Shown: in pieces, positions 34,264 through 49,349 of the stretch
Layout of the letters: every line of letters begins with the position of its first letter
How positions within the stretch are numbered: the stretch's first letter is position 1
Origin: Alphaproteobacteria bacterium
GTDB taxonomy: Bacteria > Pseudomonadota > Alphaproteobacteria > Bin95
Length of the DNA: 64,000 bases
Assembly: GCA_963665325.3 (NCBI GenBank)
Contig: CAXXWS020000002.1
Span: 497,644-561,643, forward strand
Reading direction: 5' to 3'
Made by a program: the position numbers and the translations under genes
The notes under the pieces: generated by a model
What the model saw: only the letters and a program-made list of their open reading frames with translations
Databases searched by the model: none
What the model was told of the DNA's origin: nothing

Positions 34264-34499
34264 GTTGTTCGATGGTTTTCAGGCGTCGGGCCGGGCGTGA
34301 CGGCGGGGGTGTCGGACGGCCGTCGGCGCGTCAAGCCGCTTCGCGGCTCCTGCGCTGCGCTCCGGCCCTTCGGGTGACCCGCCGCCGTCCCTCCGACGGA
34401 GTGCATCCATGGCCGTAAGCAAGCTTCCGGCCACGGGCCGGCCGCTTTACGCAGTGTGACAATGGGAGCGGTGTTACCCGTTACCGTTACCCTCTCTCC

Positions 34500-35498
34500 C
34501 TAGGGGTTCGAGGCGGTAACGGTTTTCGGTAACGTGTCCCTGCGGTCGTTGCCGTTGAGGGCGGCGAGGCGGTATCCGCCTTCGGATGCGCGCTCGACGC
34601 GTCCTTCGCGGACGAGCCTGTGCAGCGCCTCGGCGACGGTTGCGGGCCGGGTTGCCGCGCGCTCGCGGATCCGGCGCTGGGAGAGCGGCGCGTCGGCGTC
34701 GGCGAGGGCCTGCAGGATGCGCCGTTCGGGGGTATCCGGCTCCGGCGCCTGGTCTTCCGGCGTCTCGCGCAACCGCAGGGCGGGGCGCTCGTCGTCGTCG
34801 GCGAGTTCGATCTCGAGGTCTTCGAGGCCAGGGGCGTCGCGATGCTCGACGGTCATGAGGATCTGGCGGTCTCGCCGGCGCAGGTACAGATTCGAATCGC
34901 CCCAGGCGTGAAGTTCGCTGCTGCCGCGCAGCGCCTGCCCGGGCCGGGAGCCGCCGCTCTTTCGTGCGTGATGGACGAGGAGGACGGCGGTTTCGAAGCG
35001 GCGCTGTATGTCGCGCAGGAAGCCCAGCATGGGGGCGACCTCGGCGACGGTATTTTCGTCGACGCCGTGCAGGCGCACGAGGGGGTCGAGGACGACGAGG
35101 CGGGGTGAGACGCGCTCCACCGTCTCGACCAGGCGCTGGCGATCGGCGCGATGGTCGAGACGCAGCGTGGGCACGTCGATGACGGCGATGTCGAGGGTCT
35201 CGAACGCGGTGCCTGCCGCCTTTGCGATGCCCTGGAGGCGTGCGCGCACGATATGGCCGGCGTCCTCGGCGGCGAACAGCAGCACGGGGCCGCTTGCGGC
35301 GGGACGGAAGTGGCGCAGGCAGGGGACGCCGGCGGCGACCGCGACGGCGATGTCGAGTGCGAGGAAGGATTTGCCGCACTTGGGCTCGCCGCCGACGATG
35401 CCGACGCCCTGCTCGGACCACAACGCCTCGACCATCCAGCGGCGCGCCTGGGGGCGCTCTTCGAGCTCCGCCGGCGCCCGTGTCGGGAAGCCCTTCAC
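34500..35498 (-). CDS. RepA/RecA-like AAA_25-type ATPase with a C-terminal winged-helix domain
   Basis: Trimmed from track ORF 34500..36512 to the GTG at 35496-35498 (GTGA overlap). Walker A GGEPKCGKS, Walker B-like RLVVLDPL. C-terminal wHTH ..RRILQALADADAPLSQRRIRERAATRPATVAEALHRLVREGRVER... Confidence 0.7.
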   Translation of the reverse strand: MKGFPTRAPAELEERPQARRWMVEALWSEQGVGIVGGEPKCGKSFLALDIAVAVAAGVPCLRHFRPAASGPVLLFAAEDAGHIVRARLQGIAKAAGTAFETLDIAVIDVPTLRLDHRADRQRLVETVERVSPRLVVLDPLVRLHGVDENTVAEVAPMLGFLRDIQRRFETAVLLVHHARKSGGSRPGQALRGSSELHAWGDSNLYLRRRDRQILMTVEHRDAPGLEDLEIELADDDERPALRLRETPEDQAPEPDTPERRILQALADADAPLSQRRIRERAATRPATVAEALHRLVREGRVERASEGGYRLAALNGNDRRDTLPKTVTASNP

Positions 35499-36328
35499 CG
35501 CCGCGCCCTCCTCGGCTTGGCGGGTTCGCCCAGGGTCTCGATGAAGAGCTTCTCGTCGAGGACCTCGCGCTCCTTCTCGGCGGCGGCGGCGAGCAGGGCG
35601 TCGGCCATGACGGTGAGCGCCCGCGGGTTGCCGTCGGCATGGGCGACCAGGGTGTCCTTGAGGCCCGCGGTCATGAGGCCGGGATTGCCGGCCTGCTCGA
35701 TCAGATGGTCGAGCAGGGCCGCGAGGTCGCCGGCCTCGGCCTTGGTCATGACCAGGCGCTGGCGGATGCGCGAGGCGATGGGCTGCAGATCGGGCTGGCG
35801 GAGCTTGTCGAGCAGGCGCGTGTCGCCGGCGAGGACGACCGAGAGGATGGCGCGCGAGTCGAAGTCGGTCGAAGCCAGCAGGCGGATCTCGGAGAACACC
35901 GAGGGCAGCAGCTCCTGGGCCTCGTCGACGAGCACGACGGGGCGCATGCGGGTATCGTCGACATGGGCGAGCCAGCGCTCGCGCAGGCTTTTGAAGCTGG
36001 CCCAGCGGTTGTTGTACATCAGGTCGACGCCGAACATCTCGCCGATCTCGCGGTAGAAGTCGGACAGCCGGGAGGAGGGATGGGTGATGGCGGCGATGCT
36101 GAGCCCCTCGCAGCGGCCGAGACGGTCGGCGAGCAGGCGCAACGCCACACTCTTTCCGGCGCCGGGCTCGCCGGCGATCAAGGCGAAGCCGCCCTGGCGC
36201 ACCAGGTGGCGCTCGATCCTGAGGCAGAAGCTGTCGACGGCAGGCGTCGCCATGAGACTGTCGACCGGCAGGTCGGTGGCGAAGGGGTTCCACTTGAGCC
36301 CGTAGAAGGTGAGCAGTTCCCGGTTCAT
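35495..36328 (-). CDS. TniB/ExeA-like AAA+ transposition ATPase
   Basis: Walker A GEPGAGKS, Walker B VVLVDEAQ. ATGA overlap with the transposase stop. Confidence 0.8.
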   Translation of the reverse strand: MNRELLTFYGLKWNPFATDLPVDSLMATPAVDSFCLRIERHLVRQGGFALIAGEPGAGKSVALRLLADRLGRCEGLSIAAITHPSSRLSDFYREIGEMFGVDLMYNNRWASFKSLRERWLAHVDDTRMRPVVLVDEAQELLPSVFSEIRLLASTDFDSRAILSVVLAGDTRLLDKLRQPDLQPIASRIRQRLVMTKAEAGDLAALLDHLIEQAGNPGLMTAGLKDTLVAHADGNPRALTVMADALLAAAAEKEREVLDEKLFIETLGEPAKPRRARR

Positions 36329-37800
36329 GGCGCATCTCCCCGATCTTCGTCCTCGCCCGGACCGGGCGTCTTGTCATGGGGCAGCCAGGCCGGCGGCAGG
36401 CCGGTTGCGGCCTGGGCGTCGAGCATGCCCTTGAGCAGCGGCGGAAGTTCCCCCGTCCCCGCGCCGCCATTGCCATCGTTGCCGCCGGGGCCGGCGGGAC
36501 GGCGCACGCCATCGGCGTTGCCGCGCTTGTCGAGGGGGTACAGCGTGCACAGGCGCTCGCCGCCTCGACCGTCGATCAGATCGACGCTGGCGAGGTTCCA
36601 GCGCGCGTAACGGATCCAGGCCTCGCGCAGGTGGCGCCACGGCTGTGGCACCTGGTAGCGGATGCCCTCGACCGAGACGGTGCCGTCCGAGCGCCTGAGC
36701 GTGCGCTTCCTGGTGATGCGGAAGGCCGCCTTGAGCTCGGCCGAGCCGGGGCAGGATCTCGACGCGTCGACGCTCCCGGCCAGGCGTTGATGCGGCGTCA
36801 TGCCGAGCTCGCGGTGCTTGCGGCGGTGATAGTCCTGCTCCAGCCAGGCGATGGTGGCGTCGTTGAGCATCTTCAAGGTAAGCGCGTCGACGCCTTCGAG
36901 CTGAGCCATCAGGCGCGATTCGACCGTGCCCCAGAACGACTCGATCTTGCCGTTCTGATGGGGGCTGTAAGCGAGCGTCGTGACCCCCGCGATGCCGAGC
37001 CGGTGCAACCCCTCCTCGACCTCGCCCGCGGTCATCGCCGCGCCGTTGTCGGTCAGCAGGGACCTCGGCAGACCGCGCTTCATGAAGGCCTGGCAAAGGC
37101 CGTGGACGAACACCTCGGCGGTCTCGGCGAGGTACCACTGAAGGTGGCAGCCGAGGCGCGAGTGGTCGTCGAGGAAGCCGAGCAGGATCGGCGTCTTCCA
37201 CTCGCCCGAGGCGGTCAGCACGCGACGCTTGGCGCTGTGCATGTCGGCGTGCCACAGGGCGTGAGAGCGCGAGACCTCGTAGCTCAATACCTCGCGGGCT
37301 TCGACCGCCGGCCTGGCCTCGCTCTCATGCCACTTGCGCCGGCGCTTGCGTACCAGCCCGCGAGCCCGCATCGCCCGGGTCAGCGTCGCGTAGGACGGTA
37401 TCGGGCCGAGCTCGGGATCGGCCTCGACCCGCGCGGCCAGATTCTCGTGATGAAGCTGCGCCGACCACGACGGATGCGCCCGGTACTGCTCGTGCAGCGC
37501 CTCGATCAGCGTCGGCGACATCGCGCGCGGGCGCCCGGCATCGGCGCGCGGGCGCCGCTTGAGCGCCCCCACCGGATCGTTGTCCGCCGCCCGCGCCTGG
37601 TAGTACCAGCGCTCGATCGTGGACACCGCGAAGCGCACCCGGCCCTTGCCGGACGGGTGATCCCACTCGCGTTCGGCAAGCCGCTCAAGCTCGGCGTGCA
37701 GCCGCCCCGCCGGCGGCGGCGAGGCCAGAAGCGGCCCGACCACCGCGAAGCGCAACCGCGCCCACCGGTCGCGACGCTCGCTCCCGTCGTTGCTGTTCAT
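36325..37800 (-). CDS. DDE (rve/Mu-type) transposase, TniA/TnsB-like
   Basis: HTH-rich N-terminus. DDE triad context LWHADMH, LLTDNGAAM, HQNGKIESFW. Mu-transposase-like C-terminal barrel (..VSVEGIRYQVP..). Confidence 0.85.
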   Translation of the reverse strand: MNSNDGSERRDRWARLRFAVVGPLLASPPPAGRLHAELERLAEREWDHPSGKGRVRFAVSTIERWYYQARAADNDPVGALKRRPRADAGRPRAMSPTLIEALHEQYRAHPSWSAQLHHENLAARVEADPELGPIPSYATLTRAMRARGLVRKRRRKWHESEARPAVEAREVLSYEVSRSHALWHADMHSAKRRVLTASGEWKTPILLGFLDDHSRLGCHLQWYLAETAEVFVHGLCQAFMKRGLPRSLLTDNGAAMTAGEVEEGLHRLGIAGVTTLAYSPHQNGKIESFWGTVESRLMAQLEGVDALTLKMLNDATIAWLEQDYHRRKHRELGMTPHQRLAGSVDASRSCPGSAELKAAFRITRKRTLRRSDGTVSVEGIRYQVPQPWRHLREAWIRYARWNLASVDLIDGRGGERLCTLYPLDKRGNADGVRRPAGPGGNDGNGGAGTGELPPLLKGMLDAQAATGLPPAWLPHDKTPGPGEDEDRGDAP

Positions 37801-37848
37801 TCCGGCATCCCCCTCGCTGCTTCGTGGAGGTGCCGATGATGCGGTGCC

Positions 37849-38463
37849 CTATCCGTGCATCATAGAAACGCTTTCTGCGGGCGAAGCCGGACCTGCGCCG
37901 AGCGCGCAAAAGCCGGTCCACGGCATCAGCCAGACCAGGCTCCGCAGCAGCCGCGAGCGGAAGCCACGGCCCCGCATGATGCGCAGCAGCCGGCGCAGCG
38001 GCGCCTCTTCGGGCGGCGCCGCCAGCTCGCCCCGTCTCGCCTGCCACTCCCGGGTCAGCGGGAAGGCTTCCAGCCACCAGCGCCGCCAGCGCTTCAGCGT
38101 CGAGGCCGGAACCCCGCACCGCCGCGCGATCGTCTGCAACCGCGCGCCGCCGGCCACAGCCAGCGCACTCACCACAAGGAACAGCGCCCCGACGTAAAAG
38201 CGCCTGCCGAAGAAACGCACCGACGGCGGCTTCACGCGGCGTCGGCACACCGAACAGCACAGGCTGAAGCGCCGAACGTCGTTCCGAAGATTCGCCGCCA
38301 GACCGTGCGGCTTGCGCGGGTAGCTCGCGCTGTGAAGCGCGCCGCCGCAGCGCGGGCAACCCGCCGCCCGGCACGCCTCCGCCTCGGCCGCGTCGACCTG
38401 CTTCAGAAAATCCCAAACCCGGGCGTTGGAGAGATTGGAGTGCCGGAACAGCTTGTGCGACAT
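37849..38463 (-). CDS. Zn-ribbon plus HTH protein (possible TniQ-like target selector or regulator)
   Basis: CPRCGG..(26 aa)..CCSVCRRR four-Cys cluster. HTH-like LQTIARRCGVPASTLKRWRRWW. First gene of the transposon operon. Confidence 0.55.
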   Translation of the reverse strand: MSHKLFRHSNLSNARVWDFLKQVDAAEAEACRAAGCPRCGGALHSASYPRKPHGLAANLRNDVRRFSLCCSVCRRRVKPPSVRFFGRRFYVGALFLVVSALAVAGGARLQTIARRCGVPASTLKRWRRWWLEAFPLTREWQARRGELAAPPEEAPLRRLLRIMRGRGFRSRLLRSLVWLMPWTGFCALGAGPASPAESVSMMHG

Positions 38464-38607
38464 TGGGGCCGTCTCAGGTTGATGTCACTGTCACCGAGAC
38501 AAGCCCTCCGGCGGCCTTCTTGCAAGATCGCCGGGGGGCACCCAATCCAAAACCTCGATTAATCCGAGCCGATCAGCCCCTGATCGCCGCTGAAAGCCTG
38601 CGCCCGC

Positions 38608-39150
38608 TCACCCGATCTCGATATCGTTCGCGTAGAAACCCTCCGAGACCCAGGCGAACGAGCGCGACCAGATATCCCAGCGCGACCGGTCGCTCACCTC
38701 CAGCATCGCCGGAATGACCTCGTAGCCCATGAACCAGGTCATGCCGATGCAGCCCACGAAGATCACCAGCGGCAGAAACATCGCGCTCGCCACCGCGCGC
38801 ACCTGCTTCGAGCGCATCTCCGCGACGCGCGCCGCCGCCAGGAACAGAACCTCAGCCCGCGCCCGGCCGAGCCCGTAGAAGATCATCGCCTCCGAGGCCG
38901 GAACCCAGCGCGACAGCTCCACCGCGAAATCGTCCCCGCCGCCCGCAAGCGCCGCCTGCCAGTCCCGAAGCATCCGCACCCGGATCGTCTCGCGCGACTT
39001 CGCCTGCATCACCACGCCGAGCGCCTCGCGCAGACCAAGCCCGCCCTGGAGCAGGTCGTGCAGCAGATACCAGATGTCGATCCGCGCCTCCGTCCCCGCC
39101 GCCAGGAACCGCCGCACCGGAAACCAGACCGCCCCCCAGAGACGCCTCAT
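38608..39150 (-). CDS. pilR: T2SSF-domain platform protein, N-terminal-half equivalent of PilR/GspF
   Basis: Trimmed to the ATG at 39150 (ATGA overlap with the pilQ stop). ..LLHDLLQGGLGLREALGVVMQ..VPASEAMIFYGLGRARAEVLF.. is T2SSF-like, followed by a TM helix. Stop at 38608-38610, at the transposon edge. Confidence 0.7.
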   Translation of the reverse strand: MRRLWGAVWFPVRRFLAAGTEARIDIWYLLHDLLQGGLGLREALGVVMQAKSRETIRVRMLRDWQAALAGGGDDFAVELSRWVPASEAMIFYGLGRARAEVLFLAAARVAEMRSKQVRAVASAMFLPLVIFVGCIGMTWFMGYEVIPAMLEVSDRSRWDIWSRSFAWVSEGFYANDIEIG

Positions 39151-40838
39151 TCCACCGCCTCCGCGCCCGCGACCAGCACCGGCTTGCCCGGCGCGGGCGC
39201 GGCGCCGGCATGACCCGGCCCGTCCTCCACCCGGCCTTCGCCCGGAGGCCCGAACGCCGCCTTCGCCACGGCGATCTCCGCGCCCTTCAGCATCGCGTCC
39301 GCCGGATCGACCCGGCCCTTGCCGACCGCGCCCCAGATCTTCCGTCCGATCGGGACCCCGCCCATCGCGCCCGTCCAGTGGTTCCACGCGCCCACCGCAT
39401 CCCGCTTCTGGACGAACCTGAGATAGCCGTCGTCCGGGACGATCCACTCCGCCACCGCAAGCGGGCGCACATAGCCCGCCCACGCCGCCAGCGAGAGCGC
39501 CGACTGGCCCGCCGTCCGGCAACCGGCGCAGCCCTCCGGATTGCGGTAGCGGACCTCCGGGCCCAGCAGCGCCGCCAGCTCCTCCGGGAGGTCCCGGCCC
39601 TCCGGCAGAACCGGCAGCGCGCAGGACGGGCAGAGCAGCGGCACCAGCGTCTGCTTCATCAGGAGGCGCACATTGCCGGGCTTGGTCACCTCCGACACCT
39701 CGACGCCGAGGTCCATCAGCCGGAACAGGATGCCGTTCGCCGTGTGCACGTGGATTGTCGTCCACACCTGGTGGCCCGAGTCGATGAACTGCAGCACCTG
39801 CTGCGCGCCCATCTTGTCGCGGATCTCGCCCACCATCCCCGAGGCCGGATGCACCCGCACGAAATGCATCAGCGCGGCTGCAAACCCGAGCCCCCGCTCC
39901 TCGCCGATGCCCCGGGTCGGAACCGCAATCTGCACCGCGCCGGGTATGTCGTATTCGACCGGGTCCTCCAGCGTGATCATGTTGAGCTTCCCGCCATGCT
40001 CACGCATCTGGAGGTTCAGGTTCACCGCAAGCGTCGTCGACTTGCCGTCGCCCGTCGTCCCGCCGATGAAGATGCCGCCGTATTTCGACATCCGGATCTC
40101 GCGGAACAGGCCCGCCACCTCCGCCGTGAAGCCCAGGTCCTCCAGCGTCTGCCGGCCCCCGACCTGGTCGCGGTAGAAAAGCCGCATGTAGAGGTGGTGG
40201 CCCTCCGGCTCGTGCGGACCCGCCTCGCAGCGCAGCGCCGCGATCTCCTCCGGAAGCGGGAACGTCTCCGAGCGCCTCACGCTGAAACCCTGGAAGCTCG
40301 CACGCTGCAGCGAGGTCTGCCGCGAGCCTTCGTCCTTCACGAAGAACAGGAACCCGAACACCTGCTCCGCCTCCCGCACCGTCATCGCAGAACCCAGGGG
40401 CAGCTTGCGGTCGTTCACGATCGCGAACACCCGGCAGTCGTCCGGGCCCTTCTCCAGCACCACGTCCGAAGCCCGGGCCCGGGCCGCCTCCGTGAAGATC
40501 GCGACAAGCCCCTCCACGATCCGCGGGTTCACGTCCAGGCTCTCGTCACGGACCCGGTTGCCGCGCCAGACCTCCGCCACCTCCTGGAGCGAGGCCGTCT
40601 CCTCCCGGAACTGGCCCCGGACCGCGCCCGTGCGCTGCAACTCCACCAGCAGCGCGCGCAGCTCCACGTCGTTCGCATAGCCGTCCGCGATCAGCACGCG
40701 CCCGTCCGACCAGACCGCGCAGCGCTCCCGGAAGCGCTCGTCCATCCGCTCCCAGCGCAACAGGCCCGACGGCATCACCTCCGGAGGTCGCTCCTTGAAC
40801 ATGAGGCGGCCCCACCATGTGTCCCGCCAGCCCGTCAT
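39147..40838 (-). CDS. pilQ: GspE/PilB-family pilus assembly ATPase (R64 PilQ-like)
   Basis: Trimmed from track ORF 39147..42071 to the ATG at 40838 (ATGA overlap). Walker A GGTTGDGKSTT, LEDPVEY, Asp box MVGEIRD, His box TTIHVHTA, tetra-Cys CPSC..CAGC. Confidence 0.85.
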   Translation of the reverse strand: MTGWRDTWWGRLMFKERPPEVMPSGLLRWERMDERFRERCAVWSDGRVLIADGYANDVELRALLVELQRTGAVRGQFREETASLQEVAEVWRGNRVRDESLDVNPRIVEGLVAIFTEAARARASDVVLEKGPDDCRVFAIVNDRKLPLGSAMTVREAEQVFGFLFFVKDEGSRQTSLQRASFQGFSVRRSETFPLPEEIAALRCEAGPHEPEGHHLYMRLFYRDQVGGRQTLEDLGFTAEVAGLFREIRMSKYGGIFIGGTTGDGKSTTLAVNLNLQMREHGGKLNMITLEDPVEYDIPGAVQIAVPTRGIGEERGLGFAAALMHFVRVHPASGMVGEIRDKMGAQQVLQFIDSGHQVWTTIHVHTANGILFRLMDLGVEVSEVTKPGNVRLLMKQTLVPLLCPSCALPVLPEGRDLPEELAALLGPEVRYRNPEGCAGCRTAGQSALSLAAWAGYVRPLAVAEWIVPDDGYLRFVQKRDAVGAWNHWTGAMGGVPIGRKIWGAVGKGRVDPADAMLKGAEIAVAKAAFGPPGEGRVEDGPGHAGAAPAPGKPVLVAGAEAVE

Positions 40839-41770
40839 CGCCCGGACCTCGACCGGTAGGGGAGGTGCGGGCTCGTCCAGCCCTTCACGCGAACGCCCGG
40901 AGGACGCGCCTCGACCGAGACCACCCTCACGCCGCCCGGCAAGCGGTCGCCGGCCTCCACCCGCCAGACGTTCTCGCCGTCCGTCACCGCCGCGCGCAGC
41001 GCCTCGCCCGATCCCATCACCGCGAACCAGCCATAGGCGCGGGGCGGCTCGGGAGGCGGCGCCTTCTTCTCTTCCTTCGGCGCCGTCCTGGCCGCCTCGG
41101 CGGCCGCCTTCGCCTGCTGCTCGCGCACGATCTCCGCCCGCGCCGCCTCCAGCATCGCCGCATGCGCGCCGCGAACCCGCGCATCCGCCTCGCGGCGCGC
41201 CGTCTCCAGCTTCAGGGCTTCCGCCGCCCTCGCGGCCGCAGACTTGTTCAACGCCGCCGCCAGCTCGATCTCCGAGCCCACAAGCTCCTTCAGGATCGCC
41301 TGACGGTCCCGGCACAGCACCAGAACCTCGCGCTCCAGCTCCAGAGCCTCGCTGAACTGGCCCTCGTTCACCGCGCTCGACAGCATCCGCACGATCGCCT
41401 CGCGCGGACACTCGAAGGTCCGCAATATCGCCGGCTCGTAAGCGATAACCGGAGGACCGGAAGGAGAAGCCGGGGCGGCAGGGGGAGGATCGGCCTGCCG
41501 CCCCGGCAGACCGGCAGCGGCCGCAGCCGCCCCGCCCGCACGCCGCCCCGGCGCGCCGGCAGCGGACGGGGCGGCCACAGTACCCGCCGCCGCCGGTGTT
41601 GGTTGAAGATCGTCGCCCGCGCCGGACGGCTCCGATGCAGGCCTGAACTCCGGAGCCGGAGTCTTGATCGACGACCCGTCGGGGTCCTGCGCCGAGACCT
41701 CGCCGAACGACAGCACCGCCACCGACAGCGCGACCGCCGACAGCAGGAGACCGCGACGGAGGCCGGCCAC
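40835..41770 (-). CDS. PilP-like periplasmic pilus biogenesis protein
   Basis: Trimmed from track ORF 40835..42697 to the GTG at 41768-41770. Signal peptide VAGLRRGLLLSAVALSVAVLSFGEVSA, coiled-coil region, and a PilP-like C-terminal beta domain (..YGWFAVMGSGEALRAAVTDGENVWRVEAGDRLPGGVRVVSVE..). Confidence 0.55.
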   Translation of the reverse strand: MAGLRRGLLLSAVALSVAVLSFGEVSAQDPDGSSIKTPAPEFRPASEPSGAGDDLQPTPAAAGTVAAPSAAGAPGRRAGGAAAAAAGLPGRQADPPPAAPASPSGPPVIAYEPAILRTFECPREAIVRMLSSAVNEGQFSEALELEREVLVLCRDRQAILKELVGSEIELAAALNKSAAARAAEALKLETARREADARVRGAHAAMLEAARAEIVREQQAKAAAEAARTAPKEEKKAPPPEPPRAYGWFAVMGSGEALRAAVTDGENVWRVEAGDRLPGGVRVVSVEARPPGVRVKGWTSPHLPYRSRSGR

Positions 41771-41816
41771 GAAGGCTCCATTTGCCCCGCATCCCGAAAC
41801 CGGGCAGGCTCCACCC

Positions 41817-42209
41817 GTGGCAAAATCGCCCCTCGATCTGGCCGGCATCGCCAAGGCGCTCGAAGACGCCGGAATGGAACCGGACGATGCCAGGGCCGCA
41901 GCCATGCGCGTGCGCGCCGGCGCCACCGCGAACCCTCCCGGATACCACCTCGATATCCGGGACCGGAAACTCCGCAACGAGCTCATCGAAGCCGTCGCCG
42001 AAACCGGGAGGCATATCGACCGTAGCGAAGGACGAATCCTCGAACGCTTCTCGGAGATCGAACGTCGGCACATCGACGCCTCAGCGCGCCATCTCGACGC
42101 CGTCGAATACCGCCTCGGAAAACGCCTCGCCCGGCTCGTCTGGATGCTGTTCGCAGCCCTCGCGGCAATCCTCGCCGTCGCAGCAGCCGCGCTCCGATAT
42201 CTGGACTGA
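41817..42209 (+). CDS. DUF1640-like coiled-coil protein with a C-terminal TM anchor (paralog a)
   Basis: In-frame GTG at 41817 inside track ORF 41664..42209. LDLAGIAKALEDAGMEPDDARAAA.. N-terminus, heptad-like middle, ..RLVWMLFAALAAILAVAAAAL TM helix. Confidence 0.55.
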   Translation: MAKSPLDLAGIAKALEDAGMEPDDARAAAMRVRAGATANPPGYHLDIRDRKLRNELIEAVAETGRHIDRSEGRILERFSEIERRHIDASARHLDAVEYRLGKRLARLVWMLFAALAAILAVAAAALRYLD

Positions 42210-42245
42210 GCCGGCGCGACCGGGCCGGGAAGAGCCGTTGCCGCC

Positions 42246-42632
42246 TTGACGAGAACCGGCGCTGCAATACAGGATGCGCCCATCGCCGCACAGTTCGATA
42301 CGCTTATCGCCGCAGAGGCGCTGGAAGATGCCGGTATCGACCGGACGCACGCCAAGGCCATCGCTGCCCAGCTCCAGGTCGCCTCCGATGCTGGCGAGCC
42401 GGTGAGCCGCCCGGCACTCGAAGCCGCACTCGGCGCGCTCAAGGCTGAACTGCTCGAACGCATCGGAAAAACCGACGAGCGAATCGCTTCAACCGAGAAG
42501 AACCTGCTCGAACGCATCGCCGAGACCGAACGCCGGCTTATGGACCGGACTGCCGCTTTGCTCTGGCGATTCTTCGGCGCCATGGTCGCGCTTGCCGGCG
42601 TCATCATCGCCGCAGTCAAGCTGATCCCCTGA
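42246..42632 (+). CDS. DUF1640-like coiled-coil protein with a C-terminal TM anchor (paralog b)
   Basis: FDTLIAAEALEDAGIDRTHAKAIAAQL.. and ..AALLWRFFGAMVALAGVIIAAVKLIP. The track start is TTG, so the start is uncertain. Confidence 0.6.
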   Translation: MTRTGAAIQDAPIAAQFDTLIAAEALEDAGIDRTHAKAIAAQLQVASDAGEPVSRPALEAALGALKAELLERIGKTDERIASTEKNLLERIAETERRLMDRTAALLWRFFGAMVALAGVIIAAVKLIP

Positions 42633-42710
42633 CCGGGCACGCCCGGCCCGGCAGAAACCGGGACCGCGTAGGAAAGACGGCGGAAAGCGCGCGGCATCGT
42701 CCGGCAAGCC

Positions 42711-43964
42711 TCAGTCGATCTTGTCCGGCGTGGACCGCGTCCATACCGCCGGTTGCATATCGAGGTCGGCCGCCAGTTCGCGCCAGCCTATGCTCCGCAG
42801 ACCCGCCGGATCGTCCCTGACCGTCATCTCAAGACGGCCCCGCGTCCAACGCCAGACCCCGTCAAAATGCGGGCCCTCGACAAGGTTCCCGGCCTCGTCC
42901 ACCACCGAGAACTTCCCCTCGGGATGGAATACGAAACGCTTGTCCGCATAGGCCGCGCCCATGAACGGCAACTCGCGCGGATATGGGCGCGCCAGAAACT
43001 CGTCCGTCAGTTGGAACGCCTCATGGCGATGACCGGTGGGGAGATAGGGTAATGGATCGCCCATCCGATAGCGGGCCACGGTCTTCCCGTCGAATTTCCA
43101 GGCGAACCATTTGCTGCCTGACTCTTCGTACTCCACCAGGCCCGCTATCCACGCGAGGGTCCCCTCGTCCTTCAGTCCCCATATTTCATGCTGCCCCACA
43201 CCTTCTTCATGCCGAACGAACACGCGTCCGTGTCCCTGCGGACCGCGCATCACATTGCCTTCCTGCTCATTCAGGAACGTCCACACCTCGTCTCTCGTGG
43301 TTGTAGGAACGCCCGATGCCGCTATGCCCGTCCGGCCGGGTCCCGTCAGATGGGAACCCGGAAAGTGCCGGATGACTGCATCCGTATCCTGCTCTCGCAG
43401 CTTCCGCAGGCTCGACGAGGTCTGTTTCTCGTTCACTTTCATGCCCGCTGGCAGTTCTATGCGGGGACAGCCATTTGCGAACAAGCGGGGCCAACTGTCC
43501 TGCACCCAGCCTGCAGTAAAGCGCATCCAAGCTTGCTTTTCGCCGCGCCTGATCTCGTTGGCCAAGGTACCGGTTATCCGGTCGTAGTAGAGAAATTTAA
43601 ACTTGGGTTTGGTTTGCTTTCTTACAGTCTTTATGGAGGCTTCGAGGTTGTTCTCTACTTCCCAACGAACTGGTTCCTGCGCCACCCAATGCAACCTGTT
43701 GGTCGTCTTGTCTGTCCACCACGCTTTGCACTCCACATACTGCCCATTCTTCCGGAACAGCAGGGCATGCGGAACATTGCGATATTTTGGATGTTTCGGG
43801 TTATGGAAAACCCAAACTTTCCCCGAGAGTAATTCCCCGAAAAACTCCGCATGATGAGACGTGTAATTGATTGTCCTGTAGGCCTCTTCTTTGGCCGACA
43901 CTGGTCCAGGTGCCATGCCGAACGACAGCACCAACGCCATTCCAACCAAGATCGTTTTCTTCAT
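42711..43964 (-). CDS. secreted protein of unknown function, GC-poor relative to its surroundings
   Basis: Trimmed from track ORF 42711..44090 to the ATG at 43964 (GGAGGG SD upstream). Signal peptide MKKTILVGMALVLSFGMAPGPVSA. Lys/Trp/His/Phe-rich composition. No family recognised. Confidence 0.7.
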   Translation of the reverse strand: MKKTILVGMALVLSFGMAPGPVSAKEEAYRTINYTSHHAEFFGELLSGKVWVFHNPKHPKYRNVPHALLFRKNGQYVECKAWWTDKTTNRLHWVAQEPVRWEVENNLEASIKTVRKQTKPKFKFLYYDRITGTLANEIRRGEKQAWMRFTAGWVQDSWPRLFANGCPRIELPAGMKVNEKQTSSSLRKLREQDTDAVIRHFPGSHLTGPGRTGIAASGVPTTTRDEVWTFLNEQEGNVMRGPQGHGRVFVRHEEGVGQHEIWGLKDEGTLAWIAGLVEYEESGSKWFAWKFDGKTVARYRMGDPLPYLPTGHRHEAFQLTDEFLARPYPRELPFMGAAYADKRFVFHPEGKFSVVDEAGNLVEGPHFDGVWRWTRGRLEMTVRDDPAGLRSIGWRELAADLDMQPAVWTRSTPDKID

Positions 43965-44001
43965 GCCATCCGCCCTCCAACCCTGCGGTAGCTCATCCAG
44001 C

Positions 44002-45303
44002 TCAAGGCGGTGATCCCCCATTCCCGGATTCGCTGCCGCTGCTCCCGTCAGCGCCGCCGTCGTTGCCACCGTCGCCATGCCCCGAGTCACCAGGGCTCAC
44101 ACCGGAATGGCTGTCCGTCGTTCCGTGATAGCCACCTATCCCGCCGACCTCTCCGGGATTGCCGCTGGTGCCGCTGGTGCCGCTGGTGCCGGAGTGCCCG
44201 CCGTTTTCGCCGTCGGGGCCCTCGCCGCAGCCGCTCTGACACTCATCGGGCGGTATCGGCGTGCAGTTCTCGACCGTGCGCACCAGCCGCCTGGCGCCGT
44301 TTACCCGCGCCACGCGCCGGGTCGTGACGACCGGAGCTCCCGGGCGCACCTGGAAGTCGCGATACTCCGTGTTCTGCTCGTAATGCAGCGTGCAGGTCCC
44401 CGAATAGCCGGCAGGGCAGCTGCAGGGCCCCGTCGTCTTGTGGACGGGCCCCGGCCTCCAGTTGATGATCGGGTCCGGGATCGGCGTCGGAGGCGGCGCC
44501 TGCGCATACTGGAACGGACAGAGGCCCTCGGCATGGCGCCAGTCGGTGCATGCGGCCCGCGAGCCCAGACCCGCCCGGAGCGCGCAGTCGCGCGGCCAGA
44601 GATGCGGTGCGGACGGTGCCGTCTCCGAGAGGTCGTTGCAGTTGGGCGTCGCCGCCGGGCAGTCGGTCAGCGCCGTCACCTGGATCGGAACCTGCCGCGC
44701 CTCGCGGAAGGTGTCCGCCGGCGAGCCCGGACAGGCGACGTCCCGCGTCTCCGTCTCCCAGCGTATGCCCGTCACCGTGCGGATCGGATCGGCGACCGCG
44801 CCCACAAGGCCCACACGGTCCTCGGCCGTCGAGGGAATACCCATACAGGCGGGCAGCGCCGTGTCATCGCGTCCATGCGCGCCCCGCGCGATGCGCGTGT
44901 TCGCCAGGATCACATGCAGGCCCGTCCGGTCGCCGCCATGAAGCACGGGCGCAACCTGGACCTCCCTGTGGCCCCGGCCCAGGCCCTTCAGCTCGTCCTG
45001 TCCCGCATAGACCGCCAGCACCCCCTCGCAGTAGCGCGCCGTCAGACCCCGCTCCGTCCAGGACGAAAGCCACCAGGACCCGGAAGGGGGAGCGGCAAGG
45101 CCGGTCCATTCATCTTCCCAGAGATTCGCAACATCCGTCACCCGGATGCGCGCCTCCACGCTCTGCCAGGCGCTCTGGATCGCCACCGCATGCGCCAGCG
45201 CCTCCTGCTGGCGCGTCCGGTCCGGATCGCCCGTCTGGGCCATGGCGCCCGAGGCGAGCCCCGCGAATACAAGCGCCAGAAGCGCCGTTGCAAACGGTCT
45301 CAT
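44002..45303 (-). CDS. secreted Cys-rich protein with a Gly/Ser/Asp-rich C-terminal tail
   Basis: Trimmed from track ORF 44002..45966 to the ATG at 45303. Signal peptide MRPFATALLALVFAGLASGAMA. About 18 Cys. The tail ..GGHSGTSGTSGTSGNPGEVGG..GDGGNDGGADGSSGSESGNGG is encoded partly by a 9-bp triplicated repeat near 44160-44190. Confidence 0.65.
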   Translation of the reverse strand: MRPFATALLALVFAGLASGAMAQTGDPDRTRQQEALAHAVAIQSAWQSVEARIRVTDVANLWEDEWTGLAAPPSGSWWLSSWTERGLTARYCEGVLAVYAGQDELKGLGRGHREVQVAPVLHGGDRTGLHVILANTRIARGAHGRDDTALPACMGIPSTAEDRVGLVGAVADPIRTVTGIRWETETRDVACPGSPADTFREARQVPIQVTALTDCPAATPNCNDLSETAPSAPHLWPRDCALRAGLGSRAACTDWRHAEGLCPFQYAQAPPPTPIPDPIINWRPGPVHKTTGPCSCPAGYSGTCTLHYEQNTEYRDFQVRPGAPVVTTRRVARVNGARRLVRTVENCTPIPPDECQSGCGEGPDGENGGHSGTSGTSGTSGNPGEVGGIGGYHGTTDSHSGVSPGDSGHGDGGNDGGADGSSGSESGNGGSPP

Positions 45304-45384
45304 CCGGATCACCCCGCTTTCGTGCATAATGTCCGCCCTCCCGCCTGTTCGCCCCGGACACGCCCCGCACCACAGGAGGCCCCC

Positions 45385-45798
45385 ATGGCCGAGCCGTTCG
45401 ACATTGTCGCCGCGGCCGGCACGCTCGTGGACGCCGGGATAGAGCCGCAGAAGGCCCGGGCGGTCGCCCTCCAGCTCCGGGCCGCCGCCGTCGCGGGCGA
45501 GCCGGTGAACGGGGCCGAGCTCGAAGCCGCGCTCGACGCGCTCCGGGCCGCCCTGCTCGAAGCCGGCGCCGGGACCGACCGCAATATCGCCGCCACCGAA
45601 GAGCGGCTCATGGAACGCTTCGAGAAGTCCGACCGGCGCATCGAGTCCATCCTCCGGCAGTTCAACGCGACCGAGCACCGCCTCAACGCGACCGCAGCCG
45701 AGACCGACCGGCACATGGCCCGGCTGTTCTGGCGCTTCTTCGCCGCCATGGCCGCGCTCACCTGCCTCGCCGTCCTCGCCATCAAATACCTGCCCTGA
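45385..45798 (+). CDS. DUF1640-like coiled-coil protein with a C-terminal TM anchor (paralog c)
   Basis: ATG at 45385 with an AGGAGG SD (inside track ORF 44077..45798). FDIVAAAGTLVDAGIEPQKARAVALQL.. and ..ARLFWRFFAAMAALTCLAVLAIKYLP. Confidence 0.7.
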   Translation: MAEPFDIVAAAGTLVDAGIEPQKARAVALQLRAAAVAGEPVNGAELEAALDALRAALLEAGAGTDRNIAATEERLMERFEKSDRRIESILRQFNATEHRLNATAAETDRHMARLFWRFFAAMAALTCLAVLAIKYLP

Positions 45799-45853
45799 CC
45801 CGAAGGGCACGGCACGGCGGCAACCGTCGCGACGGTCGGAGCGGCCGGGCGCA

Positions 45854-46546
45854 TCATCGCGACTCCCCGAACAGGGCAACCCAGCATTGCCTCCGGGCTT
45901 CCCTCTCCCCGGCAATGAGGTCCCGCCAGGCGCGCCAAAGGCCGACGCCGCGACGCTCGGCGGCAATGGCTATCCACCCGCCGTCCGACCAGCCCCCGAG
46001 AAGCAGCGCGGAGAAGGCCAGCCAGCCGGCCAGGTTGCCCCCGCCTTCTCTGCCGACAGAGGCAAGAACAATTGCCGCGAAGATCAGGGCGAAACGCCCG
46101 CCTCCGAACCGGTCCGCCGGCAGCAGGGCCTTGCGCTTTCGGTGATTGCGGCGCTCCAGGACGAAGATCAGCAGCAGCATGGCCAGGTAGGCGCCAACGC
46201 CACCGAAAACCCTTCCCGGATTCGAACCGTCAGGATCGACAAGGTCGGCCCCGATGAGGACAATTCCGGCGAGACACGACAACATCAGGGATCGACCGCC
46301 ATGCAGGAACTCCCACCGGATGCCGCTCGCGCCATCGCTCAAGAGTTCGCTCTCCTCGATTTCGCAAGGGACGCCGCGACCAGCGAAGTCACCGGGCTCA
46401 TTGCCGCGCTCCTTGTCGCTGCCGGCTTCTGGTGTGCCGAGCATGTCGAGTTGGCCATTACTGTCGTCTGCATCGGGTTTTCCATCTATGGCCTGGCCCA
46501 GGTCTTCTGACCGGCCAGTCCGTCCGACACGCCTCAACCACCGCAT
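45854..46546 (-). CDS. membrane protein, function unknown
   Basis: Trimmed from track ORF 45854..47929 to the ATG at 46544-46546 (TGATG 1-nt overlap with the pilO stop). The C-terminal two-thirds has 4 TM helices. The hydrophilic N-terminal ~80 aa is less certain. Confidence 0.5.
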   Translation of the reverse strand: MRWLRRVGRTGRSEDLGQAIDGKPDADDSNGQLDMLGTPEAGSDKERGNEPGDFAGRGVPCEIEESELLSDGASGIRWEFLHGGRSLMLSCLAGIVLIGADLVDPDGSNPGRVFGGVGAYLAMLLLIFVLERRNHRKRKALLPADRFGGGRFALIFAAIVLASVGREGGGNLAGWLAFSALLLGGWSDGGWIAIAAERRGVGLWRAWRDLIAGEREARRQCWVALFGESR

Positions 46547-47841
46547 CAGCCCGACCTCCCCGTTGTGCGATCCGCCGCCGCGCCCGCCTGCGTCAGCGCG
46601 TCGAACTCGCTCTCCAGCATGGTGAACGGCCGCGTCCGCCTGACCCCGAACCGCCAGCCGCCCTCTTCGCTCCAGGAGACCGAGGCGACCTCGACACCCT
46701 CCATGGCGGACAGCATCGCCACCGCCTCCCTGAGCGGCCTGCCGGTGCCGAGCACCGCTTCTGCGTCCGCGCCGAACTCCGTGTATTCGATATCGAAGCC
46801 GCGAAGCGCCAGCGTCCGGTCCAGAAGGTCCCGGAACTGCGTCGGCTCCAGCGCGTGGCCGGCCTTCGGGTCGTGCCGCTCGAGCACCGAAGGCAGTGCG
46901 ACAAGCGCAACCGATGCGCCGTTGTCGTCGATGAACGCCTTCGGCCAGCCGCGCAGCATGTCCCGGGCCATCGGTTCGTAGACGCGCGGGTCGAGGCCTT
47001 CCCTGAGCGCCCAGCGGACCTCCAGCACCGGCCGGCCCATCCCGGCGCCCCATGAGGCGCCCGACTCGCTCCCGGCAAACCTCGGATGGCAGACCACGGC
47101 GCGGCGGTCGAACCCCGCCATGCGCACCCTGAGCCCGTCCCAGCCCGCCTGGCACGACCGCAGGAATGCCGGCGTCACCACGACCGCCTCCACCGTCGGC
47201 GGCTCCTCCGGTTCCGGCTTCCCGTACCCGGCCAGCTCCAGAATGTCGTCGTAATGCTGCCAGCCCGCATATGCGGCCCCGCCCACGACCAGCAGCAGCG
47301 TCGCCGCCCAGGTCGCGGCCTTCGACAGGCTCCCCTTCGGCGCCTCGACCAGGACCGGCAGGTCCTTCGCGGCGGCAGCAATGCTCGACGGCTCGACGGT
47401 CGCGGCTTCCTCGAACAGCGCCGCCAGGCCCGGCGTCGCGAGAATGCGCACGCCCTGGGTGGCGCCTGTCCCGAGCGCCCTCTGCGCCTCCGCAGCCGAC
47501 TGAAACACGCCGTCGCCGCCGGGAAGGACCGTGCCGCCCGAACCGCGCACCACCCCGACCCGCTTCGGCCCCTCGCCCTCGCCGTCCTCCTCGATGAACG
47601 CCGTCCAGGGCGACCTGCCCTCCGGGCGCTTGCGCATATACTCCACGAGCGCGCCCGCCAGCGGCGCCAGCCCGCCGGGGTTCTCGATATCGCCGAGGAA
47701 TCCCGTCTGCCCGCCGAGCTCGACCGCCCAGCGATGGCCCCGGTCGCGCGCCGCCTTCGCCGCCTTGCCCCCGCGCAGGACCTCGCGCTCCCAGTCGAGA
47801 CCGGCCGCGAAACGGTGACCGCCGACGACAAGTACGCTCAT
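46546..47841 (-). CDS. pilO: type IVb pilus biogenesis protein PilO (PilO2-like)
   Basis: The N-terminal MSVLVVGGHRFAAGLDWE.. pattern and a mid-protein TM helix are as in R64 PilO. ATGA overlap with the pilN stop. Confidence 0.65.
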   Translation of the reverse strand: MSVLVVGGHRFAAGLDWEREVLRGGKAAKAARDRGHRWAVELGGQTGFLGDIENPGGLAPLAGALVEYMRKRPEGRSPWTAFIEEDGEGEGPKRVGVVRGSGGTVLPGGDGVFQSAAEAQRALGTGATQGVRILATPGLAALFEEAATVEPSSIAAAAKDLPVLVEAPKGSLSKAATWAATLLLVVGGAAYAGWQHYDDILELAGYGKPEPEEPPTVEAVVVTPAFLRSCQAGWDGLRVRMAGFDRRAVVCHPRFAGSESGASWGAGMGRPVLEVRWALREGLDPRVYEPMARDMLRGWPKAFIDDNGASVALVALPSVLERHDPKAGHALEPTQFRDLLDRTLALRGFDIEYTEFGADAEAVLGTGRPLREAVAMLSAMEGVEVASVSWSEEGGWRFGVRRTRPFTMLESEFDALTQAGAAADRTTGRSG

Positions 47842-49349
47842 CCGCCAGCCTCCCGGGCCGCGCCGGCTGCCGCCGGAGAGACCGCATCCTGGAGGGCCGG
47901 GGCCGCCGGGGCCGCATTGCCGCTTTCAACCTTCGCGACAGGCCCGCCGGCGCCCTCGCCGAGCTGGCGTTCCGTAATGCCGAGCGGCGTCCCGATATCG
48001 GCCGTCACCAGCAGCGCCGTCTCGGCGCGGACGATGGCCGCATCCGCGCCGCCTTCGGGCAGGGGCACCGCCGGATGGAACGTGCCCGACCGCTCGCCAG
48101 AGGACGCCCGCTCGCGGAAGCCCGTGAGGAGAAGCGTCTCGCCCCTCGCGATGCGCTGCGTCACCACGATCGCGCGGCGTCCGGACGCCGGAAGCTGGAT
48201 CTGGTTGCCAGCCGGCCCGAAAGGCACGATCTCAGGAGCATCCTGGATCGTCGCCGTAATCCGCGCCAGAACCTCGTCCGGCGCGACGATCCGCGCCACG
48301 AAACTCAACCCGAAACCCCACGACACCGTATCGGGCTCCAGTTCGAACGTCCGCAGCCCTTCCTGAACCGTTGTCGTGATCTTCGCCAGATAGGCTTGGT
48401 CGAACAGGTCGTAGAACTGCGCCGGGCGCCCGTTCAGGGTCGGTACGTCCACCGACAGCACCCGCGAGGCCGTGCCGACCTTGCGGAGCGCATTCACCGT
48501 CGCCCGCAGGGACGAGGCACCGATCGATGTCGGCCTCACCACGGAAATCGTGCCGCCGTCGACGCCGACCACGAAGTTGGACCCAAACACCTCCGGCAGA
48601 ATGCCCGTCAGACCCACCTCATAGTCCGAGCCCTTGTCGAAGCGCACCGAGTAGACGTGCACCGACAAGGTCACCGGGCGCAGCACATGCCCGTTCACAT
48701 GCTCCAGATAGGCCCGCACACGGTCCGCCGCCCGGGGCAGGCCGGTCACCGTCACCGTCCCGGCCGTCGTCGAAACCGAAACCGCGCCCTCCGGACCCGC
48801 CGCCGCAACCGCCTGCGGCCCGATCTCCTGCCAGGGATCGTAGGTCATCTCGGACGAGATCGATTGCGAGGAAGTGCCGCTCGTCCCCTCGCCGGCGCTC
48901 CCGGACGTCGTCGTCGTCACGCCGTATGTTTGCCTCCCCGCCAGTGCGTGGACCTCGAAGATGCGCGTCTCGGAGCGCACGACCTCGACCAGCGCCGCCT
49001 CGTCATCGTACTGCCACCGGTAGCCCGCAGCCTGCGTCCAGGCGTCCAGCAGCCGGTCAAGCGGACCCGACCACACGCCGGCCTCGCCCGCCAGCTCGTC
49101 TGACCAGGACGAGAGCCAGTCCACGCGAACGGTGTCCGTCAGCGTACGAACGGTATCCGTTACTGCGTCCACGGGTCCGCCCTCGCCGACAGGGGACTGC
49201 CAGCGGACGCCGACCAGGCGGACCCCGATCCCGGCCGCATCCGATATCCGCCGCGCCAGAACCTCGTCACCCGGCTCGTCGCCGAGCGTGACAACGATCC
49301 CGGTCTCCGAGCGCAGGTCCTCGGGCAGGAGCGAACGATCCTCCGCCAC
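47838..49349 (-). CDS. pilN: secretin PilN (type IVb pilus); the annotated GTG start is probably not the true N-terminus
   Basis: The secretin C-domain (..LSVDVPTLNGRPAQFYDLFDQAYL..VVTQRIARGETLLLTGFRE..) is present. The same frame stays open upstream to 49619 and encodes ..GAVGALFLAAAILLPGCGW.., a lipobox with its Cys codon at 49491-49493. There is no ATG/GTG/TTG in that stretch. Confidence 0.75.
   Translation of the reverse strand: MAEDRSLLPEDLRSETGIVVTLGDEPGDEVLARRISDAAGIGVRLVGVRWQSPVGEGGPVDAVTDTVRTLTDTVRVDWLSSWSDELAGEAGVWSGPLDRLLDAWTQAAGYRWQYDDEAALVEVVRSETRIFEVHALAGRQTYGVTTTTSGSAGEGTSGTSSQSISSEMTYDPWQEIGPQAVAAAGPEGAVSVSTTAGTVTVTGLPRAADRVRAYLEHVNGHVLRPVTLSVHVYSVRFDKGSDYEVGLTGILPEVFGSNFVVGVDGGTISVVRPTSIGASSLRATVNALRKVGTASRVLSVDVPTLNGRPAQFYDLFDQAYLAKITTTVQEGLRTFELEPDTVSWGFGLSFVARIVAPDEVLARITATIQDAPEIVPFGPAGNQIQLPASGRRAIVVTQRIARGETLLLTGFRERASSGERSGTFHPAVPLPEGGADAAIVRAETALLVTADIGTPLGITERQLGEGAGGPVAKVESGNAAPAAPALQDAVSPAAAGAAREAGG

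Follow-up and report, generated by a model that had tools for sequence, protein, structure and literature searches.

A conserved, lineage-specific insertion of secreted-protein genes and divergent DUF1640-like genes in an R64-type pilus cluster of an alphaproteobacterium

Herein, we describe a block of genes located between pilO and pilP of a type IVb pilus cluster in a 64,000-nucleotide stretch of DNA from an Alphaproteobacteria bacterium (GTDB lineage Bacteria; Pseudomonadota; Alphaproteobacteria; Bin95; GenBank assembly GCA_963665325.3, contig CAXXWS020000002.1, positions 497,644 to 561,643 of the forward strand); this whole stretch is called the window. The block holds three small plus-strand open reading frames (ORFs), ORF1, ORF2 and ORF3, whose products are remotely related to the DUF1640 family, together with minus-strand genes for two secreted proteins, cargoA and cargoB, and for a predicted membrane protein, TM218 (Table 1). 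Judged by sequence and gene-order comparison, the block is a conserved insertion specific to this pilus lineage, because it is present in related loci and missing from two reference type IVb clusters. The explanation we favor, at a probability of roughly 0.6, is that the window carries an integrated IncI/R64-type element with a conserved pilO-pilP insertion made of a secreted-protein module and ORF2, a probable membrane scaffold, and that ORF1 and ORF3 are later copies.

A search of GTDB genomes with the pilO-position protein yielded six loci from alphaproteobacterial metagenome-assembled genomes (MAGs), and look-ups of homologous proteins added more. The related pil loci number 10: seven with both flanks (L001, L003, L005–L008 and L018) and three on shorter contigs that do not reach pilO (L014, L019 and L020). 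All 10 have at least one secreted-protein gene, and an antisense ORF2-like gene beside the secreted-protein gene or pilP. In the seven, the order is pilO, cargoB, cargoA, one or more antisense DUF1640-like genes, and pilP. The other three show cargoA, the antisense gene or genes and pilP, with part of cargoB also present in L019 and L020. An additional locus, L004, reads pilN, pilO, TM218 and cargoB before its contig ends. pilP is followed by pilQ and pilR in L003 and L005–L008, and pilO identity across the related loci goes down to 55%. Between cargoB and cargoA, a GNAT gene was detected in L001, L003 and L006–L008, and a radical-SAM gene in L001 and L003.

The closest relative with the same short form of the module is L018, which is 81.5% identical to window positions 42218–45316 in one unbroken 3.1-kb alignment; its pilO and pilP flanks align too. 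Compared with L018, the window has two extra segments: ORF1 in the gap between ORF2 and pilP, and ORF3 plus TM218 in the gap between pilO and cargoB. In the two reference clusters, those of Bosea pANAM02 and of an Acidiphilium MPF_I plasmid, the secretin, pilO2, pilP-position and ATPase genes are contiguous on one strand with no insertion, pilP preceding pilO2 in the Acidiphilium plasmid. A megablast of 38–50 kb of the window and a tblastn of pilO and ORF2 against PLSDB plasmids gave no match. An earlier note on this DNA, made from the sequence alone, had located the block between pilO-side genes and pilP-like/pilQ genes, and this is borne out: pilO-position and PilN-family genes flank it on one side, and PilP-family and T2SSE genes on the other. 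That note had also called the block an accessory module, a view it would have given up had related islands contained the same genes as conserved components of the pilus. Synteny divides this claim. The block is accessory with respect to ordinary type IVb clusters, but related islands keep the same genes in the same place, as components conserved within the lineage. Two further observations concern the surroundings of these loci. At L001 positions 1–1956, homology to the window ends exactly at the 3' end of pilP; the L001 pilus cluster is truncated, since an AAA_16 gene rather than the pilQ ATPase gene follows. Genes of the Uma2 and AAA_16 types are again found close to the cargoA homologues of L012 and L014.

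The three plus-strand genes have different histories. Of the three, ORF2 comes closest to the single antisense gene of the relatives, with an amino-acid identity of 68.5–69% in L006 and L018–L020 and of 47–59% in L003, L005, L007 and L008, versus 35–48% for ORF3 and ~33% for ORF1. Orthologues of ORF1 were found only in L001 and L014. ORF3 has four close orthologues at 87–92% identity, of which P0002 (92%) lies on L001 and the others are the database clusters P0003–P0005 (87–91%); it is absent from L003–L008 and L018. Given these similarities and the ratios of nonsynonymous to synonymous substitution rates (dN/dS; Table 1), sequence comparison identifies ORF2 as the ancestral, constrained copy, ORF3 as a constrained recent gain, and ORF1 as a copy evolving almost neutrally.

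Copy number also varies among the loci. L003, L006–L008 and L018–L020 have a single ORF2-like gene on one side of the cargo only, and L005 has two short tandem copies on that same side. In L001 and L014, four to five copies or fragments are arrayed in the gap between pilP and cargoA, alongside a gene for a Uma2 nuclease-like protein. These arrays comprise an ORF1-type gene, a DUF1640-family gene, and short or truncated copies. The DUF1640-family gene of L014 is a homologue, at 33% identity, of the bona fide PF07798 gene of L001. L001 also has truncated fragments of 57 and 62 amino acids, and its positional ORF2 orthologue lost the C-terminus. A single MAG (OZ219786, OZ219789) contains one element three times, as L006–L008. 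Their ORF2-type genes (L006 15861–16241, L007 15791–16279, L008 15861–16307) differ only in the number of an 11-residue stalk repeat (ERIAxxxxxLx), which suggests rapid length variation of the coiled-coil stalk.

The window has a GC (guanine plus cytosine) content of ~70% and consequently long spurious ORFs in all frames. The three plus-strand ORFs are set apart from these by their codon-position GC, and we therefore regard them as real genes. GC at codon positions 1/2/3 is 0.76/0.48/0.74 in ORF1, 0.71/0.49/0.73 in ORF2 and 0.74/0.49/0.93 in ORF3, the third-position value of ORF3 agreeing with native composition; the overlapping minus-strand ORFs lack this pattern of high first, low second and high third positions. 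The start codons are GTG (ORF1), TTG (ORF2) and ATG (ORF3), each at the first position of its gene. The ATG is preceded by AGGAGG, and support for the GTG comes from the L001 orthologue, which starts at the corresponding site, and from L014, where the start is ATG. The protein database entry P0011 is the same 128-residue product as that of ORF2. The possibility that the three are antisense artefacts of a long minus-strand ORF (40835–42697 or 44002–45966) was ruled out by codon-position GC, homologues and dN/dS.

The paralogy of the three ORFs is far beyond chance. Pairwise BLASTP E-values are 2e-20 for ORF2 and ORF3, 7e-23 for ORF1 and ORF3, and 9e-14 for ORF1 and ORF2, with identities of 32–42%, and 30 columns are invariant across the alignment. 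A profile hidden Markov model (HMM) of the family, run against the six-frame translation of the 64-kb window, found exactly these three copies. At the nucleotide level, 30-nt patches at 42563 and 45729 agree at 27 of 30 positions. The earlier note had proposed these plus-strand ORFs, their homology and a nucleotide likeness at their 3' ends; each stands at the coordinates it gave, with a coding pattern in support.

Each of the three proteins has a single hydrophobic segment within its last ~24 residues (residues 107–125 in ORF1), followed by 1–5 residues, and no N-terminal signal peptide was found by hydropathy. The AlphaFold 2 (AF2) monomer model of ORF3 (predicted local distance difference test, pLDDT, 93.8) has helices at residues 7–16, 21–36 and 43–135, corresponding to a two-helix head, a short loop and a single long helix. 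Stalk self-similarity peaks at offsets of 7, 11 and 18 residues. Model, hydropathy and periodicity thus reproduce the head, stalk and C-terminal membrane anchor of the DUF1640/CCDC90-like family. We know of no bacterial protein of this family with a known function. Since a signal peptide is missing and only 1–5 residues extend past the anchor, head and stalk are most likely cytoplasmic and tethered to the inner membrane. This predicted placement agrees with the orientation of the mitochondrial DUF1640 proteins Put6 and Put7, which face the matrix and assemble into a hetero-oligomeric complex (PMC7519068). Roles in surface functions, exclusion or recipient recognition, suggested earlier for the three ORFs, fit poorly with proteins that have no signal peptide and are predicted to lie mostly in the cytoplasm; this topology makes such roles unlikely for them, and they are possible for the two secreted proteins.

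Homology of ORF1–3 to bona fide DUF1640/CCDC90-like members was detected by profile methods. A word-indexed search returned seven clusters only; an exhaustive profile search of 1.8 billion representatives returned 252 relatives at E <= 1e-3, 32 of them at E <= 1e-10. PF07798 (DUF1640, now named CCDC90-like) matched 44 of 70 sampled relatives from the profile search, with a best E-value of 1.3e-16. Aligned by hhalign, the close subfamily and the distant relatives gave a probability of 99.6% (E 2e-24, 139 columns), in a comparison set that had been retrieved with the query profile itself. When the 70-sequence alignment A3 (the three ORFs and 67 search hits) was used as a profile, it matched the CCDC90B structure in PDB (6h9m) at 1.2e-7 and a prokaryotic homologue (6h9l) at 0.005. 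In addition, L001 bears a bona fide PF07798 gene at the same spot, scoring 51.2 bits versus the gathering score of 33.5 bits.

The two secreted-protein genes of the module both begin with signal-peptide-like sequences and have low dN/dS (0.21 for cargoA and 0.23 for cargoB), which supports the earlier identification of two minus-strand genes for secreted proteins enclosed by the block. That identification had left out a further minus-strand gene, TM218, and its description of the two proteins as orphans does not survive, as the cargoA family alone comprises ~104 clusters. Its members are proteins of ~415 residues, most with a lipoprotein-type N-terminus and none with a Pfam domain of its own; one 483-residue member, P0225, bears Radical_SAM PF04055. 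cargoA is present in every related pil locus that reaches its position. Its AF2 model (pLDDT 88.6) is mostly beta, and in Foldseek it showed only a partial likeness to lipocalin-like barrels, with no global match and TM-scores below 0.2. A PDB sequence search with the cargoA profile found nothing.

cargoB has a conserved Cys-rich N-terminal region of ~360 residues. The long form continues beyond it with Cys-Pro repeats and an acidic linker, and ends in a domain like the self-processing module (SPM) of FrpC. In L001 (7838–9943), the C-terminus matches the FrpC SPM (PDB 6sjw) at 1.4e-23, and GNAT and radical-SAM genes follow. The window protein is 92% identical to residues 1–366 of this 701-residue protein and ends within a Gly/Ser/Asp-rich linker; the window has none of the SPM domain, GNAT gene and radical-SAM gene of L001. 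A short, 444-residue cargoB is also found in L018. A private deletion in the window was ruled out as the source of the short module, as four more contigs, three of them included in the comparison, have the short form too. Over 42700–44250, GC is 56–66% (56% over 43–44 kb) versus ~72% elsewhere, and this segment matches the short-module variant of L018–L020 (81.5%) rather than L001, otherwise the closest relative. This pattern indicates that the module allele was replaced by recombination with a lower-GC donor. At L011 (7586–12877), a set of cargoB-like, cargoA-like, GNAT, radical-SAM and P450 genes has no pil or DUF1640-like genes within 10 kb. Since this set occurs without pil genes, the secreted-protein module is an independent unit able to move between contexts.

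These data, which show homology, architecture, gene order and copy-number history, can be combined into the following model. The element would consist of a Dot/Icm-like type IV secretion system and a type IVb thin-pilus cluster, integrated in the 1.34-Mb contig described below. Its pilO-pilP junction has a secreted-protein module, encoded on the pil strand, and next to pilP a single small gene on the opposite strand. In its long form the module consists of cargoB, extended by the FrpC-like self-processing domain, then a GNAT acetyltransferase, a radical-SAM enzyme and cargoA, and in its short form, the one in the window, of a truncated cargoB and cargoA. The opposite-strand gene is ORF2, encoding a two-helix head, a coiled-coil stalk of 7/11-residue periodicity and a C-terminal tail anchor. 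By analogy with its mitochondrial relatives, the ORF2 protein would probably be an oligomeric membrane scaffold, and the same role is favored for ORF3. ORF1 and ORF3 would have arrived later, one at each boundary of the module with the pil backbone. Birth-and-death turnover would account for the spread from one to five copies or fragments among loci, for the variable stalk length and for the near-neutral ORF1.

Several points weigh against this model. ORF1, ORF2 and ORF3 have no PF07798 match at E <= 1, and direct scans gave none of them a convincing Pfam or NCBIfam match; PF07798 is matched, below threshold, by just two close subfamily members, P0008 (30.8 bits) and P0016 (15.1 bits). According to Hartmann et al. 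(PMC4786415), the hallmark of the family is the beta-layer motif aliphatic-A-T-K-polar-D/E, located where the stalk begins. It is kept in the distant relatives (consensus LATKxDL) and replaced by P-V/P-x-x-x-x-L in ORF1–3, where the aligned residues are EPVNGAEL, EPVSRPAL and NPPGYHLD. As profile links are present yet PF07798 does not match and the motif is replaced, the three proteins are filed as a divergent subfamily related to DUF1640 rather than as regular members. The earlier label "DUF1640-like" therefore stands for remote homology between profiles and fails as a direct family match. A Foldseek search of the ORF3 monomer model against PDB gave nothing significant, as expected for a long single helix, and we infer the topology, oligomeric state and scaffold role of the ORF2-type protein. 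Close subfamily members are also found singly in ordinary chromosomal neighborhoods (L002, L010, L013), and in L011 and L012 the cargo module is not accompanied by a DUF1640-like gene, L012 having cargoA alone. Because members and module occur apart, the data fall short of demonstrating a functional coupling specific to either the pilus or the module. Finally, part of the window's contents may be non-functional: ORF1 may be decaying, and pilR is disrupted.

It is possible, though we think it unlikely, that the DUF1640-like genes are passengers, that is, small mobile or duplicating accessory genes that pile up at permissive operon junctions and have no role in the pilus or the module. The position of ORF2 would then reflect the shared ancestry of close elements and not selection for linked function. 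A passenger origin would agree with the dN/dS of ORF1 (0.86–1.03), with the truncated fragments and the ORF2 orthologue without a C-terminus in L001, with a copy number of one to five, with the unrelated genes (Uma2, TM218) that the pilO-pilP gap also gathers, and with the housekeeping contexts in which subfamily members also sit. However, ORF2-type copies keep their position and orientation in loci where pilO has diverged to 55% identity, and they are under purifying selection (dN/dS 0.29–0.45 at dS up to 0.76), as is ORF3 (0.29).

The scaffold could also have a more specific task. We consider it doubtful, although worth stating, that the ORF2-type protein is a dedicated cytoplasmic-face membrane scaffold or regulator that works with the type IVb pilus machine (e.g., the PilQ ATPase or the PilR platform) or with module export, tuned by stalk length and by ORF1/ORF2/ORF3 hetero-oligomers. 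If true, a bacterial DUF1640-type protein would for the first time have a functional context, and conjugative mating pili would gain a newly defined accessory module.

A regulatory role of transcription itself, raised in the earlier note, seems improbable. According to such a scheme, the antisense genes lie within a long pil transcript, and how far transcription passes from pilN-pilO and the module on into pilP-pilV is modulated by antisense RNA or by head-on transcription. The antisense orientation is indeed kept in all related loci. The divergent gap to pilP is only ~46 bp in the window, and in L020 it gives way to an overlap of 2 nt; because the gap is so small, pilP probably has no free-standing promoter region. 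Between the convergent genes, terminator and promoter scans and folding of the intergenic regions gave no signal above shuffled controls, so no terminator-like signal above chance separates them. The scheme is, however, drawn from sequence layout, the only consensus promoter match in the region falls outside these junctions, and the purifying selection on the ORF2 and ORF3 proteins argues that the proteins themselves matter, beyond the act of transcription.

Recombination between the directly repeated paralogs, by which the enclosed cargo would be mobilized or swapped, had also been proposed in the earlier note and is now largely refuted. In both the window and L001, directly oriented paralogs do flank the cargo on either side, and the cargo differs between the two (short versus long form) though their flanks are 83–92% identical; but in most relatives the paralogs lie only to one side of the cargo, so that the block is not a repeat-bounded cassette, the window/L001 breakpoints (43074 and 44249) fall inside cargoA and cargoB and outside the paralogs, and the window/L018 differences are simple insertions with no exchange between paralogs. 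A repeat search for long direct repeats able to drive recombination found only short patches of ~70–80% similarity between the paralogs, at most ~190 nt long (best patch 27/30), and this similarity is too low for recent homologous recombination.

The genes around the block belong to a conjugation system. The minus-strand cluster at 2.8–49.35 kb is a Dot/Icm-like (MPF_I) system, with domain matches to the T4SS-DNA_transf coupling protein, DotH/IcmK, DotI/IcmL, TrbI, the T4SS_TraI lipoprotein, the T2SSE ATPase and TcpQ. The adjoining pil cluster also encodes a PilS prepilin (30.6 bits versus a 22-bit cut-off) and two PilV-like proteins with weakly matching Shufflon_N domains. The R64-type set of PilN secretin, PilP, T2SSE, T2SSF, PilS and PilV is thus present, T2SSF only weakly, in what is a divergent member overall. 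The secretin scores 139 bits for TIGR02520, below the 287.65-bit cut-off, and the PilP match to TIGR03021 is likewise below the NCBIfam cut-off. The pilO-position gene has no Pfam or NCBIfam match; its orthologues in L001 and L003–L008 are 55–92% identical, and PilP-like orthologues are present in all related loci. ORF1 and the PilP-like gene are divergent. The window does not have a contiguous, co-oriented pilN-pilO-pilP-pilQ-pilR series: pilO and pilP are 4.7 kb apart, with six genes between them, three of them antisense. Since the host contig is 1.34 Mb long and homology to the related element L001 stops at ~49496 (~49.5 kb), the element is taken to be integrated.

The platform gene pilR, a single ORF of ~355 residues in L003 and L005, is split in the window by a 4.3-kb insertion with rve/HTH_32 and AAA_22 domains and an HTH ORF at 37849–38463. 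A reversal of GC skew at 34–37 kb coincides with the insertion region. Because pilR is split by this IS21-type insertion, the thin pilus of the window element is probably non-functional, which lowers confidence that all of the block is still in use here. TM218, the variable gene between pilO and ORF3, occurs among the relatives only in L004, at the same position and 73% identity, and is absent from L001, L003 and L005–L008; it has no Pfam or NCBIfam match. In a PADLOC scan for anti-phage defence, ORF1–3, cargoA, cargoB and TM218 had no match, and only the radical-SAM enzyme of L001, which is not in the window, matched, as a partial pVip (1.9e-12). A PHROGs scan of the window proteins gave nothing except a marginal phrog_17872 match for ORF2, and a scan of viral contigs with the subfamily alignment found no relatives.

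Table 1. Features of the pilO-pilP block and its flanks in the window, with dN/dS where available.
Feature	Position	Strand	dN/dS	Description
pilR C-terminal half	33694..34263	-		Aligns to second half of L003/L005 pilR and to T2SSF gene of Bosea pANAM02
Insertion splitting pilR	34264..38607			4.3 kb, IS21-type; istA 36325..37800, istB 35495..36328
pilR platform gene (T2SSF), N-terminal half	38608..39150	-		Truncated by insertion; weak T2SSF matches
PilQ-like type IVb pilus ATPase	39147..40904 (start approximate)	-		PF00437 T2SSE 7.9e-41
PilP-like gene	40835..41770	-		TIGR03021 pilP_fam 2.5e-5; GTG start, signal-peptide-like N-terminus; downstream flank
ORF1	41817..42209	+	0.86–1.03	130 aa; divergent DUF1640/CCDC90-like protein, predicted tail-anchored coiled coil; between ORF2 and pilP
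ORF2	42246..42632	+	0.29–0.45 (dS up to 0.76)	128 aa; DUF1640-like, conserved copy; converges on cargoA 3' end
cargoA	42711..43964	-	0.21	417 aa; predicted secreted beta-rich protein, conserved uncharacterised family, low-GC allele
cargoB, short form	44002..45303 (alternative start 45327)	-	0.23	433 aa; predicted secreted, Cys-rich; without C-terminal FrpC-like self-processing module
ORF3	45385..45798	+	0.29	137 aa; DUF1640-like extra copy between pilO/TM218 and cargoB
TM218	45854..46510	-	0.18	218-aa predicted multi-pass membrane protein; variable insert between pilO and ORF3
pilO-position gene	46546..47841	-	0.27	431 aa; directly after secretin; upstream flank
PilN-family type IVb secretin	47838..49349	-		First gene of cluster, island edge; TIGR02520 1.6e-40, weak Pfam Secretin match

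The insertion can be defined as an accessory module, so far undescribed, of one lineage of integrated IncI-type elements that occur in alphaproteobacterial MAGs. Within it are two uncharacterised secreted-protein families, to which the long form adds an FrpC-like domain, a GNAT acetyltransferase and a radical-SAM enzyme, and it could affect mating-pair formation or cell-surface chemistry. A DUF1640/CCDC90-like copy at a fixed position and orientation in a conjugative pilus operon also offers a tractable genetic setting for the function of this family. The window itself is of limited value in this respect, with a reduced module, one neutrally evolving paralog and a platform gene broken by an insertion sequence.

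Three known systems can be compared with the block. The first is FrpC of Neisseria meningitidis, whose self-processing module acts in a calcium-dependent "clip-and-link" reaction and cleaves at an Asp-Pro bond. The long-form cargoB of L001 ends in a matching domain, after an acidic linker and Cys-Pro-rich repeats. It differs in that Lys precedes the Pro that opens the conserved P-x-x-L-D-L-D-G-D-G stretch, at what would be the cleavage position of FrpC. Since this residue is Lys and not Asp, self-cleavage of the L001 protein is uncertain. An SPM protein inside a conjugative pilus operon appears to be undescribed. The second is the DUF1640/CCDC90-like family (PF07798), which includes human MCUR1 and CCDC90B, yeast Put6 and Put7, and prokaryotic homologues (PDB 6h9m, 6h9l). 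The window proteins resemble it in their small size, an N-terminal helical head with the motif FDT-L...L..AG....A.A, a long coiled-coil stalk and a single C-terminal membrane anchor, but their genes lie antisense inside a conjugative pilus operon.

The third is the thin-pilus operon of the IncI1 plasmid R64, in which the gene order is pilIJKLMNOPQRSTUV (PMC6232867). The window shares with it the PilN secretin, the pilO-position gene, PilP, T2SSE, T2SSF, PilS and PilV-like proteins with shufflon N-domains, as well as adjoining Dot/Icm-like tra genes. In R64 and the two reference plasmids, in contrast, the secretin, pilO, pilP and ATPase genes are contiguous and co-oriented. In conclusion, the R64-type pilus cluster is known, and what is new is that such a cluster has an accessory insertion, conserved in its lineage, along with a divergent family of DUF1640-like genes.

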